Positions 313 to 37,050 of a DNA stretch of 64,000 nucleotides are shown piece by piece. The position numbers and the translations under genes were made by a program. The stretch comes from Eledone cirrhosa. Taxonomy: Eukaryota. The stretch lies in assembly GCA_964016885.1 (NCBI GenBank), contig OZ024742.1, positions 124,930,001 through 124,994,000 on the forward strand, given 5' to 3'. Within the stretch, counting starts at the first letter, position 1; each line of letters opens with the position of its first letter. Below the pieces are notes generated by a model. That model was not told where the DNA came from. It was given only the letters and a program-made list of their open reading frames with translations, and did not search any database.

Positions 313-588
313 ATATATATATATATATGTATATGTATATATATATATGTATATGTATATATATGTATATGTGTATGTATATATATATATATATATATAT
401 ATATATATATATATATATATATATATATATATATATATATATATATATATATATATATATATATATATATATATATATATATATATATATATATATATAT
501 ATATATATATATATATATATATATATATATATATATATATATATATATATATATATATATATATATATATATATATATATATATATAT
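312..588. repeat. (TA)n microsatellite
   Basis: Directly visible. Further (TA)n arrays at about 1010-1165, 2453-2510, 17660-17848, 20833-20883, 21238-21296, 22707-22768, 23398-23467, 25000-25232, 25720-25800, 27520-27590, 27943-28185, 32016-32071 and 37050-37079. Confidence 0.98.
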
Positions 589-624
589 AATATAAGATCA
601 AAGGATGGTTAAAGGAGTTCAATA

Positions 625-695
625 TATTTTATTATGCGCATTTCAAAAACAAACATCATCAAACAATAATATTTGTGTTTTCATCAGATAAAACA
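625..695 (-). ncRNA. Minimal type-I hammerhead ribozyme (family A, mirror copy)
   Basis: Reverse complement of the 816-886 motif inside the palindrome. Confidence 0.8.
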
Positions 696-815
696 GGAGA
701 ACATGATATGAAGGCTAAAAAAACACTTGTTGATAGTGCAGTTTTAAATCAACATATGTTGATTTAAAACTGCACTATCAACAAGTGTTTTTTTAGCCTT
801 CATATCATGTTCTCC

Positions 816-886
816 TGTTTTATCTGATGAAAACACAAATATTATTGTTTGATGATGTTTGTTTTTGAAATGCGCATAATAAAATA
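816..886 (+). ncRNA. Minimal type-I hammerhead ribozyme (family A)
   Basis: Stem I TGTTTTAT/ATAAAATA; core CTGATGA (824-830); about 16-bp AU/GU stem II with GTTT loop; GAAA (867-870); palindromic stem III ATGCGCAT; predicted cleavage after UA at 878. Confidence 0.85.
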
Positions 887-32243: not shown

Positions 32244-32288
32244 AGTCATAGTCCTTTCGTCACACACTCTGTGACCTCTTCAGTGACT
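32244..32288 (-). ncRNA. Hammerhead ribozyme in the PLE 3' repeat
   Basis: Identical to 36775-36819. Confidence 0.8.
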
Positions 32289-32516
32289 GGGGATTCCTTT
32301 CTTCGTTTCTGTGCCTTTTCTTTCTTCTATCCTACGCCATTTTGTTTCTGTGTGTGTGTTGTGTGCTCAGTTTGCGCATGTGCCACATCCGGGTGTCTGT
32401 GTGTGTTTGTGTTCATTTTTCTATTTGTTTATTTATTTATTGTTGGTTGGTTGTTTGTTCTATGTGTGTGTGTGTTTTCATTTTGTCCTGTGTGTGTTTT
32501 CATTTTGTGTGTGTTT

Positions 32517-35130
32517 TCAATTGTAAGTTGTTTGTTCTATGTGTGTGTGTGTTTTCATTTGTCCTAAATTGTAAGTTGTGATGTTGCTGTTCCACTCATA
32601 TTTTCTATTTAATTTTGGTTTTAATTCTTTTATGCTTACTGCCTCTGTAATTTGCCTAAACATTGCGTCTTTTCTGTGCATGGATTCTATTTTTATTTCT
32701 ATGCTCTCTAATCTACCCCTGTGTTCTATCTTAGCATGTTGGTAGAGCACAGATGATTCTTTATTATCTTGGAGGTCTCGCCAGTGTTCATTTATTCGTT
32801 CCCCTATACTACGAGCTGTCTCACCTATGTACACTATATTTTTGTTTCTACATTGTCCTTCAGTACATCTTATGCTATACACTACATTTCTAGTTTTACA
32901 GTTAATATGGGGGCTTATTTTACAGGTTATACATTTCTTATCTATACATGAGGGTCTTTGGAACGGGTATGTCTTGCTAATAAGTGTTTTTACGGAGGTA
33001 CCAGGTCTTTCTACTATCTTAATATTGAGATTATGTTTATTTAGGGCCTTTCTAAATTTGTAGGCTAGTTCGCCTCTAGGGGTTGTATTGATGAACAGTG
33101 CACTCTGGTATTTATTGCTATCATACCATGAGTTTATTCTATTGGCCTTGTTCCTAGTTCTTTCTATTCTATTCCAAAATATGCTCCTATACAAGGGGCA
33201 GGTCCCATTTATGTCATTATTTACCATTTTTTTCCCATTTGGTTCTGGCTCCTTTATACACTCTGATTCTATCTCTCTGATTGTAGCCAGAGAACTGCAT
33301 ACGGTGGATGAAGTGTTGTATGTGTCTCTCTAGTTCTTCGGGGTTGCACATGCGGGACACATTTCTCATCACCCGTACCAAATCCGCAATCAGTATGTTG
33401 ATTTTGGTATGGTCCGAAATGGCCGAGTTTCGGTGGATCAGATGTTTGGAAGTCATGGGTTTGGCATAATGGGAATGGAGGATTTGTTTTTGGTTGTTAA
33501 TGGTATCTAACCAGAGCTCTGTGTCTAGTACAGGTAATCGATGGTTGGGGTGTCTACTTGGGTAGTCTATAGTAACTCTAATGCTCTGGTGGATGGAGTT
33601 TGCTATTTGCTGGATGCTTTCCATTGTGTTTTTCTCTAGTTCCTGACTGTTCTTTAGTGGGGGTGTCTTAACTACGATGTTTATATCATCTACGTAGCGG
33701 GAGTACATTATCAGGGTTAAGCTGTCTTCTAATTGTTTATTACGTTTTTGTTTAAGTCTACTGTCCCACCATACCATGAATAAGTTAGCTATGTCGCCTG
33801 CAATGCTAACACCAATGGCTGCTCCTTCCTCTTGGGCATATGTTTTACCATTAAATTTGAACATATGTTCCTTAAGGGTTAATTTTATACTGGCCCCTAC
33901 CGCATGTGCAATCATTTTCTTCAGTTCATCGTGGTTTTCGGGTGTCCGTATGGCTCTGGTCCACCCGTTCCATCTATCTGTGTGGGTTTTCTTGGCCATT
34001 GAGGTAATGGTAGGTGGTCTGCCTCTTGCTGGTCTTGTAGGGCACAGGTTGCTAAGGTCATAAGTGTCTAGGTAACTATTACTATGGGTAAGCTTAAGTA
34101 GAAGTCCCAGCTCACTGGTATCAATCCCACGGAACTCAACCTTGCTCTCGCTGATCATTTCTACGCATTTCTCCACTGCAAAATCCACGTCAATAGATGG
34201 ATACAGGGACACAACATCCATACTGCCTAATATGCAGTTTGTTAGGTCCCCAGATCGGTTACCCGCGCCGATTCTGCTGAGGAGGTCCTCCGTGCTGTCA
34301 CACACATCTGGGGACATCTCAATGATGGGGCGTATGATCAGGGAGAGGAAGTAGGACAGTCTGTAGTTACTAGCAATGTTAGCCCCACAGACTGGTCTTG
34401 TTGGTGGTCCCGTGACAGGGTCCCAGCCCGTTTTATGGTCTTTTCGAAGCCCATACAACGCCGGCACGTCATTGTTCCAGGCCTGGAAGTTGTTGGCAGT
34501 CCTTTTGTTGGGCTGTATTATATTTGTCCACATCACCATATGGGCATTGAGGGCTTTTTCTCTATCCTCATGCTCCTGTGGTGTTACCTCTCTTGTGTTA
34601 GTGATGTGGGGTTGCATTGCCTGGATGTAGTTTGGCAGGCTGTCAACCGACATTCTGCCAGACTTGTCTGTTGGAAAACATGCTATCTCTCCATTACGTG
34701 AGCGCTGCATGAGCTTACGCAAGCCATTTGCAGATTCTTCTCCCAGTTGCTGGGCCTCTATTCTATTATGATTCTTGCTATACTGTTCTATAATATTTCT
34801 AAGTTCGGATTTAGCTATACTAAATTGTGCTTCTGTTTGTTCATCGACCTGCGACGGCAACTGCGTGCGTTTGTTAAATGGCAAAGTCGTGGCGTGGACT
34901 CGTCGTAGGTCGAATGATTTATCGGAGGGGTTATAAAACGGAGAGTTCCAGGCTGCTGCTTTATGTGTACTAGTGCTATTATTATTGTTAGTTGTGTTAT
35001 TTCTATTTCTATTTCCACCAGCAGCCTCAGCTTCATGGTTGTTTCTATGTCTCTCATAATTACTCCTGTCTCTTTCGACTGGCTCAATGTTGTTATCTAC
35101 CCTATTTTGTGTGTCGTGTGTTCGTCTTGG
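32517..35130 (-). pseudogene. PLE RT-GIY-YIG polyprotein, split by a 1-nt homopolymer frameshift at about 33228
   Basis: The 555-aa ORF (PTDKSG, PPTRPVCGA, GSMDVVSLYPSID, YSRYVDDI) continues upstream without stops to about 35130 (...FDLRRVHATTLPFNKR). T7 here versus T6 in the 18.9-kb copy shifts KWEK/MVNND into the 236-aa Cys-rich GIY-YIG ORF. Confidence 0.88.
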
Positions 35131-35517
35131 TTATTCTCTTTGTCCTTAGTCTCCCATCTCCTTTTCTTTTTTTTTAATCCTATTACTTTCTCTTATTTCT
35201 CTGATTTCTGTGCTACTGTCATTACTTGTTTTCTGTGTCTGTGTGTTTGTTAAGATTGTGGTGGTGGTGAGAGGCATTGAATGCGTGTGTGTTGTTGTTG
35301 TTGATGTGTGTTGTTGTTGATGTGTTTTGTTGTTGTCTCCGTGTGTGTGTTATCGTTGTTGTGTGTGTTGTTATTGTTGTTTGTGTCTGCGTGTCTGTTG
35401 TTGTTGTATCTGGGTATGTTGCTATTGTTGTTGATGTGTGTGTTGTTGTTATTGTTGTCTCCGTGTGTGTTATCGTTGCTGTGTGTGTTGTTATTGTTGT
35501 TTGTGTCTGCGTGTCTG

Positions 35518-37050
35518 TGGAAAGCATCCAGCAAATAGCAAACTCCATCCACCAGAGCATTAGAGTTACTATAGACTACCCAAGTAGACACCCCAACCAT
35601 CGATTACCTGTACTAGACACAGAGCTCTGGTTAGATACCATTAACAACCAAAAACAAAACCTCCATTCCCATTATGCCAAACCCATGACTTCCAAACATC
35701 TGATCCACCGAAACTCGGCCATTTCGGACCATACCAAAATCAACATACTGATTGCGGATTTGGTACGGGTGATGAGAAATGTGTCCCGCATGTGCAACCC
35801 CGAAGAACTAGAGAGACACATACAACACTTCATCCACCGTATGCAGTTCTCTGGCTACAATCAGAGAGATAGAATCAGAGTGTACAAAGGAGCCAGAACC
35901 AAATGGGAAAAAGTGGTAAATAATGACATAAATGGGACCTGCCCCTTGTATAGGAGCAAATTTTGGAATAGAATAGAAAGAACTAGGAACAAGGCCAATA
36001 GAATAAACTCATGGTATGATAGCAATAAATACCAGAGTGTAATGTTCATCAATACAACCCTAGAGGCGAACTAGCCTACAAATTTAGAAAGGCCCTAAAT
36101 AAACATAATCTCAATATTAAGATAGTAGAAAGACCTGGTACCTCCGTAAAAACACTTATTAGCGAGACATACCCGTTCCAAAGACCCTCATGTATAGATA
36201 AGAAATGTATAACCTGTAAAATAAGCCCCCATATTAACTGTAAAACTAGAAATGTAGTGTATAGCATAAGATGTACTGAAGGACAATGTAGAAACAAAAA
36301 TATAGTGTACATAGGTGAGACAGCTCGTAGTATAGGGGAACGAATAAATGAACACTGGCGAGACCTCCAAGATAATAAAGAATCATCTGTGCTCTACCAA
36401 CATGCTAAGATAGAACACAGGGGTAGATTAGAGAGCATAGAAATAAAAATAGAATCCATGCACAGAAAAGACGCAATGTTTAGGCAAATTACAGAGGCAG
36501 TAAGCATAAAAGAATTAAAACCAAAATTAAATAGAAAATATGAGTGGAACAGCAACATCACAACTTACAATTAAGGACAAAATGAAAACACACACACACA
36601 TAGAACAAACAACCAACCAACAATAAATAAATAAACAAATAGAAAAATGAACACAAACACACACAGACACCCGGATGTGGCACATGCGCAAACTGAGCAC
36701 ACAACACACACACAGAAACAAAATGGCGTAGGATAGAAGAAAGAAAAGGCACAGAAACGAAGAAAGGAATCCCCAGTCACTGAAGAGGTCACAGAGTGTG
36801 TGACGAAAGGACTATGACTATATATATAAACAACTATCTGGTTGTGGAACCAACCAACCAACCAGAAATTTATAATTTATAAGTTTGTAGATTTGTAAAT
36901 TTATGAATTTATAAATATATAATAAATTGAAGTGAAACAACTGGTGCGTGTGTTTCTTATTGGCAACATGACCCTCCCAAAGTATAACAATATCGGTTTC
37001 AACACACGATTTCAGATAAAGAATCTTGCTAAACAAATTCAGAAACGAAA
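35518..37050 (+). mobile_element. Inverted 3' arm of the Naiad-like PLE (RT C-terminus + GIY-YIG + 3' repeat + about 59-nt extension)
   Basis: Reverse complement of 32071-33623; continues 36992-37050 before (TA)n. Confidence 0.93.
36775..36819 (+). ncRNA. Hammerhead ribozyme in the PLE 3' repeat
   Basis: AGTCA-CTGAAGA-G-GTCACA gagtg TGTGAC-GAAA-GGAC-TA-TGACT. Confidence 0.8.

Follow-up and report, generated by a model that had tools for sequence, protein, structure and literature searches.

Offset long and short ends of head-to-head Penelope-like insertions in (TA)n arrays of Eledone cirrhosa and their probable origin by two-strand priming

Inverted insertions with a one-sided "tail" are known from endonuclease-bearing (EN+) Penelope-like elements (PLEs; Arkhipova 2013, PMC3846280; Craig 2021, PMC8557442), and in Adineta the tail extends the pseudo-long terminal repeat (pLTR) from 12 to 22 codons of the open reading frame (ORF; PMC3846280). 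In vitro, PAc (Poseidon, Anolis) nicks and extends both target strands, and its reverse transcription begins at two internal sites, which form the boundaries of the tail (Frangieh 2024, PMC11167929). Two RNAs acting on two nicks have been postulated for L1 as dual priming (Meyer 2010, PMC2837659), and non-LTR retrozymes have been proposed to be non-autonomous PLE derivatives (PMC7229834; bioRxiv 10.64898/2026.07.22.740005). One-sided extensions belong to curators' knowledge, and octopus genomes hold recently active PLEs (PMC8969392, PMC13282606). Statements made here on cited work refer to the parts of each source that were available. Against this background we describe a 64,000-nucleotide stretch of Eledone cirrhosa DNA (assembly GCA_964016885.1, contig OZ024742.1, forward-strand positions 124,930,001 to 124,994,000; hereafter the window), in which an initial annotation had noted head-to-head insertions with one long and one short end. 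The extension in question is the published one-sided PLE tail, found here in a new family and in non-autonomous companions. The reading that we prefer, with a probability of about 0.6, is that the window holds head-to-head insertions of an EN-bearing PLE and of short hammerhead-bearing elements, and that the tail arose by two-strand priming, in which cDNA starts at two different internal sites of an RNA that is tandem or read-through.

Elements, arms and ends in the window

Arms were aligned pairwise outward from each centre, and the overlap between element and array was measured at each junction. The two loci of family A are called A1 and A2, the large coding element is called the coding PLE, and B is its sister family. 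These alignments bore out the long/short asymmetry at all four loci first reported, with differences of 1–3 nt from the coordinates first given, and all ends adjoined (TA)n arrays. At A1, the short arm (587..755, minus strand), a non-coding PLE-type end with a hammerhead motif at 628-692, overlaps (TA)n 378-589 by 3 nt of TA at its short end, 587, and the long arm (756..1010, plus strand) carries a hammerhead motif at 819-883 and an 86-nt tail (925-1010); the centre at 755/756 is perfectly palindromic and the arms differ at 1 of ~170 nt. The second locus, A2, has the long end (25233) and the short end (25438-40) attributed to it and is not a full palindrome, since its long arm (25233..25277, minus) is confined to the final ~45 nt of the tail, with no overlap with the short arm (25274..25440, plus), apart from an ATAT common to it and the short-arm start. 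This short arm, with a hammerhead motif at 25338-25402 and a 5-nt TA overlap, starts at the same base as the A1 arms, and the long ends of A1 and A2 coincide. In family C, a 62-nt tail (20884-20945) lies on the long arm (20884..21103, minus; hammerhead motif 21021-21060) and the short arm (21104..21241, plus; hammerhead motif 21126-21165; inner boundary approximate) stops at 21241 with a 4-nt TA overlap.

The short arm of the coding PLE (32071..35517, minus; 3.4 kb) comprises an Asn/Thr-rich 5' part, a reverse transcriptase (RT) frame at 33217-35130, a thumb and GIY-YIG frame at 32517-33329 and a hammerhead motif at 32244-32288, and reaches its short end at 32069-71 with a 4-nt TA overlap. Its long arm (35518..37049, plus; 1.5 kb) is 5'-truncated in RT and contains a CxxxxCxxC finger with GIY-YIG (36029-36574), a hammerhead motif at 36775-36819 (predicted cut after 36814), an ATG at 36968 and a tail of 56 nt (36994..37049, plus); the 59 nt given previously counts AT bases that possibly belong to the array. 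A second, 5'-truncated copy (17849..20294, minus) with part of RT, GIY-YIG and a hammerhead motif at 18017-18061 has its short end at the base identical to 32071, as had been proposed. Two further copies assigned at first to the same family belong to the diverged sister family B and are 75% identical to each other. One is a solo copy (25537..25720, minus) with (TA)n on both sides, which ends 3–4 nt before the short end of the coding PLE, so that the described agreement of ends holds nearly to the base. The other, a solo copy between two (TA)n arrays (22919..23396, plus; hammerhead motif 23120-23163; position 23398 in the earlier description), does have a long end, with a 43-nt tail that stops ~11 nt inside the tail of the coding PLE, before the long end of the latter. 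By eye only, the copy at 25537 seems to start (window 25690-25720) near the predicted hammerhead cut of its family (after 23158).

A fifth asymmetric case was noted in family F, a retrozyme-like array (26053..27519, plus) of 3.1 x 472 bp with one hammerhead motif per unit (26230, 26702 and 27174) and a 14-nt inverted short arm (26053-26066). Its right end lies 21 nt further along the unit, and inner copies continue beyond that point; stub and offset ends together are, to judge from their sequence, the scar of a PLE-type insertion. Tail lengths in the window were 43–86 nt, and 21 nt in the F array. Short ends recurred within 0–4 nt in three of three copies of the coding PLE and its sister family and within 3 nt in both A copies.

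The RT frame of the coding PLE matched RVT_1 in a domain profile search with an expectation value (E) of 3e-4, under the cut-off, and GIY-YIG was found after RT in two copies (E 1e-4 and 8e-5); an endonuclease profile built from relatives matched all three window copies. The domain order is RT, CxxxxCxxC and GIY-YIG, i.e., the endonuclease is C-terminal. Window translations contain the finger CIDKKCITC, which is present in most relatives, and CTEGQC with two Cys inside the GIY-YIG core. Frames of the window copies are broken by shifts, and relatives have RT and GIY-YIG in one ORF. The best RT match, among 258 proteins that passed of 8000 candidates scored, was 74% identical to a protein labelled as Octopus vulgaris. 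By the clade features of Craig 2021 (PMC8557442, in the parts available), the predicted protein is of the canonical C-terminal-endonuclease type and, within it, of Neptune/Nematis type, and the label "Naiad-like" used initially fails on domain order, on the motif DKS (invariant in 24 sequences) in place of DKA and on the hammerhead motif at 36775-36819. The window holds no full-length copy; a partial tandem with direct pLTRs around a full ORF was seen in relatives L002 and L007, and the one-sided tail with an inverted 5'-truncated copy, as in canonical EN+ PLEs, is present here. The Asn/Thr-rich low-complexity 5' part of the short arm (35130-35517), which has frame shifts, is similar to an Asn-rich stretch of protein P0001, and these stretches recall the N-rich inserts of Adineta PLEs.

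A relaxed hammerhead descriptor gave 14 matches in the window, 14 of which lay inside these elements (A1, two; A2, one; C, two; coding PLE, three; B, one; F, three; D, one; E, one), all with the sense strand pointing outward. A strict filter left five matches, compared with 0–1 in each of 20 shuffles. Most motifs have a short, often palindromic helix III, a trait of PLE hammerheads (PMC4209133). Because the motifs point outward, the orientation of the non-coding families is fixed, with 3' ends outward and 5' ends meeting, in agreement with the head-to-head arrangement first proposed; the elements as read from these features are PLEs joined 5'-to-5' that carry minimal hammerhead motifs. Both C motifs (TTGAAAA, at 21021-21060 and 21126-21165) and that of relative L002 at 17-54 (TTGAGAA) have a variant core, in which position 3 is T and position 8 is A; this variant would keep the 3-8 pair.

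Templates of the two arms

At the locus of the coding PLE, the short arm has 1.9 kb missing from the long arm and the long arm has the 56-nt tail missing from the short arm. At 48 columns the two arms agreed with each other against the copy at 17849, and they differed from each other at about 10 points and by one 76-nt insert; their inner junction was free of (TA)n. The A2 arms cover separate parts of one unit, and ~40 nt of that unit is absent between them. At neither of these two loci can one arm have been copied from the other. Since each arm of the coding PLE holds unique sequence, each needed an RNA template there, and RNA-templated synthesis from both target ends, the central element of the mechanism first suggested, is supported.

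These arms bear directly on a fold-back route, in which cDNA started at the long site would snap back at its 3' end and copy itself, the copy then switching to the opposite target end through TA microhomology. This route would produce what is seen at A1 and F, where the arms are near-identical and the centres perfectly or almost perfectly palindromic, and self-priming has been proposed for such junctions (PMC3846280). Fold-back requires a short arm nested in the long arm, which is false at two of the five loci (coding PLE and A2), and it leaves unexplained the solo short-end copies (25537 and 17849) as well as the 165 contigs, described below, that end at one base. As a general route it is excluded by the coding PLE, and we consider it a decidedly unlikely source of the loci as a set.

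The A2 arrangement resembles the twin-priming signature of L1, and the same picture would result from a deletion in an A1-like palindrome. The latter possibility is part of another explanation, by which a few asymmetric palindromic masters were transcribed whole and re-inserted, with later deletions giving forms such as A2. In keeping with it, the short arms of A1 and A2 have the same starting base, and a deletion between two ATAT words would turn A1 into A2. Inheritance of this kind is nevertheless very unlikely, given that the arms of A1 differ at 1 of ~170 nt whereas A1 and A2 differ by ~8%, that solo long and solo short copies exist, and that inner junctions differ in kind among all five loci.

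In the two-strand priming that we favour, the GIY-YIG domain would nick both strands of (TA)n, and the two 3' ends would prime on a tandem or read-through RNA, one of them downstream at the long site and the second upstream at the short site, both start sites lying slightly inside the ORF start that follows the pLTR. Start positions would be set mainly by the protein-RNA complex, with TA pairing of 3–5 nt probably helping at the short site, and the two 5'-truncated cDNAs would be joined by host repair with 0–4 nt of microhomology. One RNA would suffice for the non-overlapping arms of A2, as in L1 twin priming; the overlapping arms of A1, C and the coding PLE would need a second round of templating, on another RNA, on another unit of the same tandem RNA or on the first RNA once more. 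The short hammerhead-bearing elements were likely mobilised by the PLE.

Two RNAs may also have taken part at family E (20295..20832, plus), a ~520-nt unit with a ~20-nt terminal direct repeat, a hammerhead-like motif at 20702-20781 and a 5-nt overlap between its 3' end and (TA)n. This unit and the copy at 17849-20294 are joined 5'-to-5' at 20294/20295 without (TA)n between them, and the pair is bounded by (TA)n arrays. The join is possibly the result of one event with two different RNAs.

Position and pairing of long and short ends

Overlap between element and array at short-type ends was 3 and 5 nt in A, 4 nt in C, 4 and 4 nt in the coding PLE, 1 nt in B, 2 nt in F and 5 nt in E, i.e., 3–5 nt at six of eight such ends, and 2 and 2 nt at the two long ends with a known continuation. 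An overlap of at least 4 nt is expected for 7–15% of positions at a random junction and was present in four of five families (P about 0.0007 at 11%). No end in the window falls on the internal TA tracts of 7–11 nt in the coding PLE, C, B and F, and more than pairing is thus needed to specify the short site. Of the earlier proposal that the second cDNA anneals to an internal UA-like motif, the discrete short end with its TA overlap was retained and selection of the site by the motif alone was given up.

That proposal also placed the long arm at the RNA 3' terminus. The tail of the coding PLE continues the frame of the ATG at 36968, the point from which homology with B runs (B ATG 23329), and is the likely start of the next ORF in a tandem transcript. 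Compared with the N-termini of 120 relatives, the tails matched P0011 best; matches as good came from 14 of 300 shuffles of one tail and 4 of 300 of the other, and by eye P0028 and P0121 have the same short motif as the tails. In a search of 2515 frames with a profile of seven N-termini, the two tails aligned to its positions 1-26 and 1-25, with E of 4.5 and 4.7. In two of three tandem-collapsed relatives the ORF starts 66 and 182 nt past the hammerhead cut, compared with 154 nt here. These results support the tail as an ORF start for the coding PLE and B only, not for A, C and F. A likeness of the A and C tail ends was reached by 107 of 500 shuffles and dismissed as not significant, and folding of six end regions as RNA gave no common structure, the sole strong z-score stemming from the TA array.

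If one primer lay at the true RNA 3' terminus and the other at an internal UA motif, the coincident long ends of A1 and A2, the lack of visible continuation past the A and C long ends in the window and the above-chance TA overlap at short ends would all be accounted for. However, the tail of the coding PLE reads as an ORF N-terminus, the F array unit runs on past its long end in inner copies and B ends 11 nt inside the tail of the coding PLE, so that the long end is probably not an RNA terminus. In addition, poly(A) was found at no long end in the window, and PAc ignores added 3' sequence and starts internally (PMC11167929). The terminus version of two-sided priming is therefore highly improbable.

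The distribution of ends was followed in four public runs (X1, X24, X21 and X22) mapped on 36460-37063; X1 and X24 are biased samples, and their mapping does not link both ends of one insertion. Among the 10,625 contigs mapped from X1, 165 exit the element at 36993 and continue into (TA)n, a count taken among the rows listed (12 of 769 overall), and this cluster was the larger of two "behind" clusters among the six X1 rows listed. Summed contig depth in X1 fell from 2.0 million at 36964-84 to 1.42 million at 36994 and 1.01 million at 37042; five of eight listed pieces extend past 37050 into TA. With X24 (136,403 reads), depth stepped from 12,327 to 8,969 at the short end, drifted to 7,723 at 37030 and collapsed at AATT 37039. 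We did not take the read ends piled up at 37039 for a long end because they lie on AATT, like piles at 36870 and 36901; this AATT is presumably a restriction site of the X24 library. An opposite-strand joint at 36815/37008 in X24 (24 reads) was left unused, its geometry being unlike head-to-head and its origin possibly one locus. The Hi-C runs X21 and X22 gave 1 and 0 mapped reads. The short end is thus a family-wide point, and the long end is common, its sharpness less clearly seen than that of the short end. A 22-nt short-end pattern had no match in metagenome contigs, and the 79 metagenome loci contained close relatives on short contigs only, without inverted arms. RT alignment searches found no relative among viral contigs (84 candidate stretches) and one weak match of no relevance in bacteria.

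One long and one short end were paired in all five classifiable same-family inverted loci with a hammerhead motif (P at most 0.031 for independent choice), a sample in which four loci had been chosen by the initial annotation for their asymmetry and in which C and F have no second copy to define the short end. Element D (ends diverged on both arms), the join to E (two families), the palindromes at 13154-13286 and 1863-2106 (no hammerhead motif) and solo copies were left out of this count. Pairing beyond chance is suggested by these loci.

A loose control was provided by distant relatives (22–28% RT identity), on long contigs among the metagenome loci, with no match to the endonuclease profile in 12 of 12 loci. 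Inverted outer ends coincided within ~0–5 nt in all six control loci with both ends located (L044 was not located). L022, L023, L043, L059, L065 and L067 are dispersed PLE-like elements with direct and inverted pLTRs and symmetric inverted ends, in which neither an endonuclease nor a pLTR hammerhead motif was detected; L023 has a 41-bp direct repeat around the insertion.

Symmetric ends in relatives without a detectable endonuclease are what would be expected if cDNAs started at one (long) site and, as the DNA intermediate was resolved, the element's own endonuclease cut it at a TA-like motif in its interior, leaving the short end. Such trimming and annealing explain the short-end TA motif equally well, as a nuclease motif would give the same signature as pairing. 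On the other hand, both tail boundaries are RT start sites in vitro (PMC11167929), and longer internal TA tracts, in principle better nuclease targets, are unused as ends in the window. We regard trimming as unlikely.

Two-strand priming may be ordered in Zn-finger-type PLEs. The two (TA)n ends would then be bound to different start sites, the long one set by protein and the short one helped by 3–5 nt of UA pairing, each on its own RNA, so that even RNAs of the coding PLE and E (20294/20295) could be joined 5'-to-5' in one event. This extension is tentative, and we hold it possible rather than probable; if true, it would explain the one-sided tail, which in vitro work left open.

Several results weigh against two-strand priming at two internal sites as set out above. 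A1, C and F fit fold-back equally well, no intermediate was seen and the steps are deduced from end products. In vitro, PAc showed neither a start-site difference between strands nor homology to the cut DNA (PMC11167929), a behaviour that does not predict long+short pairing or TA overlap. The F and B short ends have only 2 and 1 nt of TA overlap, the join at 20294/20295 is possibly short/short, which would reduce pairing to five of six loci (P = 0.11), and the profile statistics for the tail as ORF start (E 4.5 and 4.7 among 2515 frames) are modest. Over the length of the tail, X1 depth declines only gradually (1.42 to 1.01 million), and a single sharp long end is therefore not demonstrated; X24 is blind beyond 37039. 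The hammerhead motifs are descriptor matches by sequence, i.e., putative ribozymes, and no hammerhead was present among 93 Rfam matches in the window, which were hairpin or microsatellite noise.

Other features of the window include the older inverted element D (28186-32015), with arms 85% alike and a hammerhead motif at 31912-31966; it shares (TA)n 32016-32072 with the coding PLE and has an unrelated 30–45 nt at both ends, so that it is not classifiable as long or short. The palindrome at 13154-13286 is symmetric, TA-flanked and TA-rich at its centre, resembling a miniature inverted-repeat transposable element, and that at 1863-2106 (245 bp) lies outside (TA)n. Broken non-LTR retrotransposon frames with RVT_1 matches, unrelated to the tails, occur at 4680-7763, 39497-52288, 45318-46358 and 54783-60238, and an Exo_endo_phos domain was noted at 47911-49398 in one such frame.

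Comparison with described systems

A literature search returned nothing on long+short pairing or on short-site microhomology, with key older papers and one supplementary figure outside its coverage, and a search for Penelope with twin priming returned unrelated work only. What is added here is small, i.e., longer tails, TA overlap at the short site, non-nested arms and long+short pairing. The loci bear on how the inverted PLE arm arises, in that two of them are incompatible with simple fold-back and suggest that each target end primed synthesis on RNA. Should pairing hold genome-wide, it would provide a direct prediction for the in vitro system, and the insertion scars would tie retrozyme-like arrays to PLE enzymes; should it fail, the window would hold an ordinary set of PLE remnants.

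The closest counterparts are the tails of EN+ PLEs (PMC3846280, PMC8557442), which share with the present loci head-to-head 5'-truncated copies, a one-end extension into the first ORF codons, Asn-rich ORF segments and microsatellite targets. Those tails are 30–40 nt long as opposed to 43–86 nt here (21 nt in the array), and in the window target site duplications are unreadable inside (TA)n and several carriers are short and non-coding. Naiad PLEs (PMC8557442) likewise have (TA)n targets, a CX2-5CxxC finger and a tail; as described in the available parts of that report, they differ by an N-terminal endonuclease, DKA and no canonical hammerhead, compared with the C-terminal endonuclease, DKS and hammerhead motif found here.

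With PAc (PMC11167929), the mechanism proposed here shares two internal starts just inside the ORF that bound the tail, an AT-rich target, an upstream hammerhead and cutting and extension of both strands. PAc starts at an AC-rich stem-loop, with no target homology and no difference between strands in the parts of that report available, whereas most short ends in the window overlap the target by 3–5 nt, no conserved fold was found, long and short ends were paired in 5/5 loci and the element is of Zn-finger-linker type.

As in L1 twin priming (PMC2837659), a second nick that primed at an internal RNA site would give an inversion with internal deletion, as at A2. L1 differs in starting at poly(A) and in having a variable second site; here neither site is poly(A) and the second is fixed per family. 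The F array, with tandem units that each carry a type I hammerhead, is like metazoan non-LTR retrozymes (PMC7229834; bioRxiv 10.64898/2026.07.22.740005). Its 472-bp unit is slightly above the 150–450 bp quoted for these and, unlike the retrozymes quoted, it ends in (TA)n at offset positions and bears an inverted stub of PLE type.

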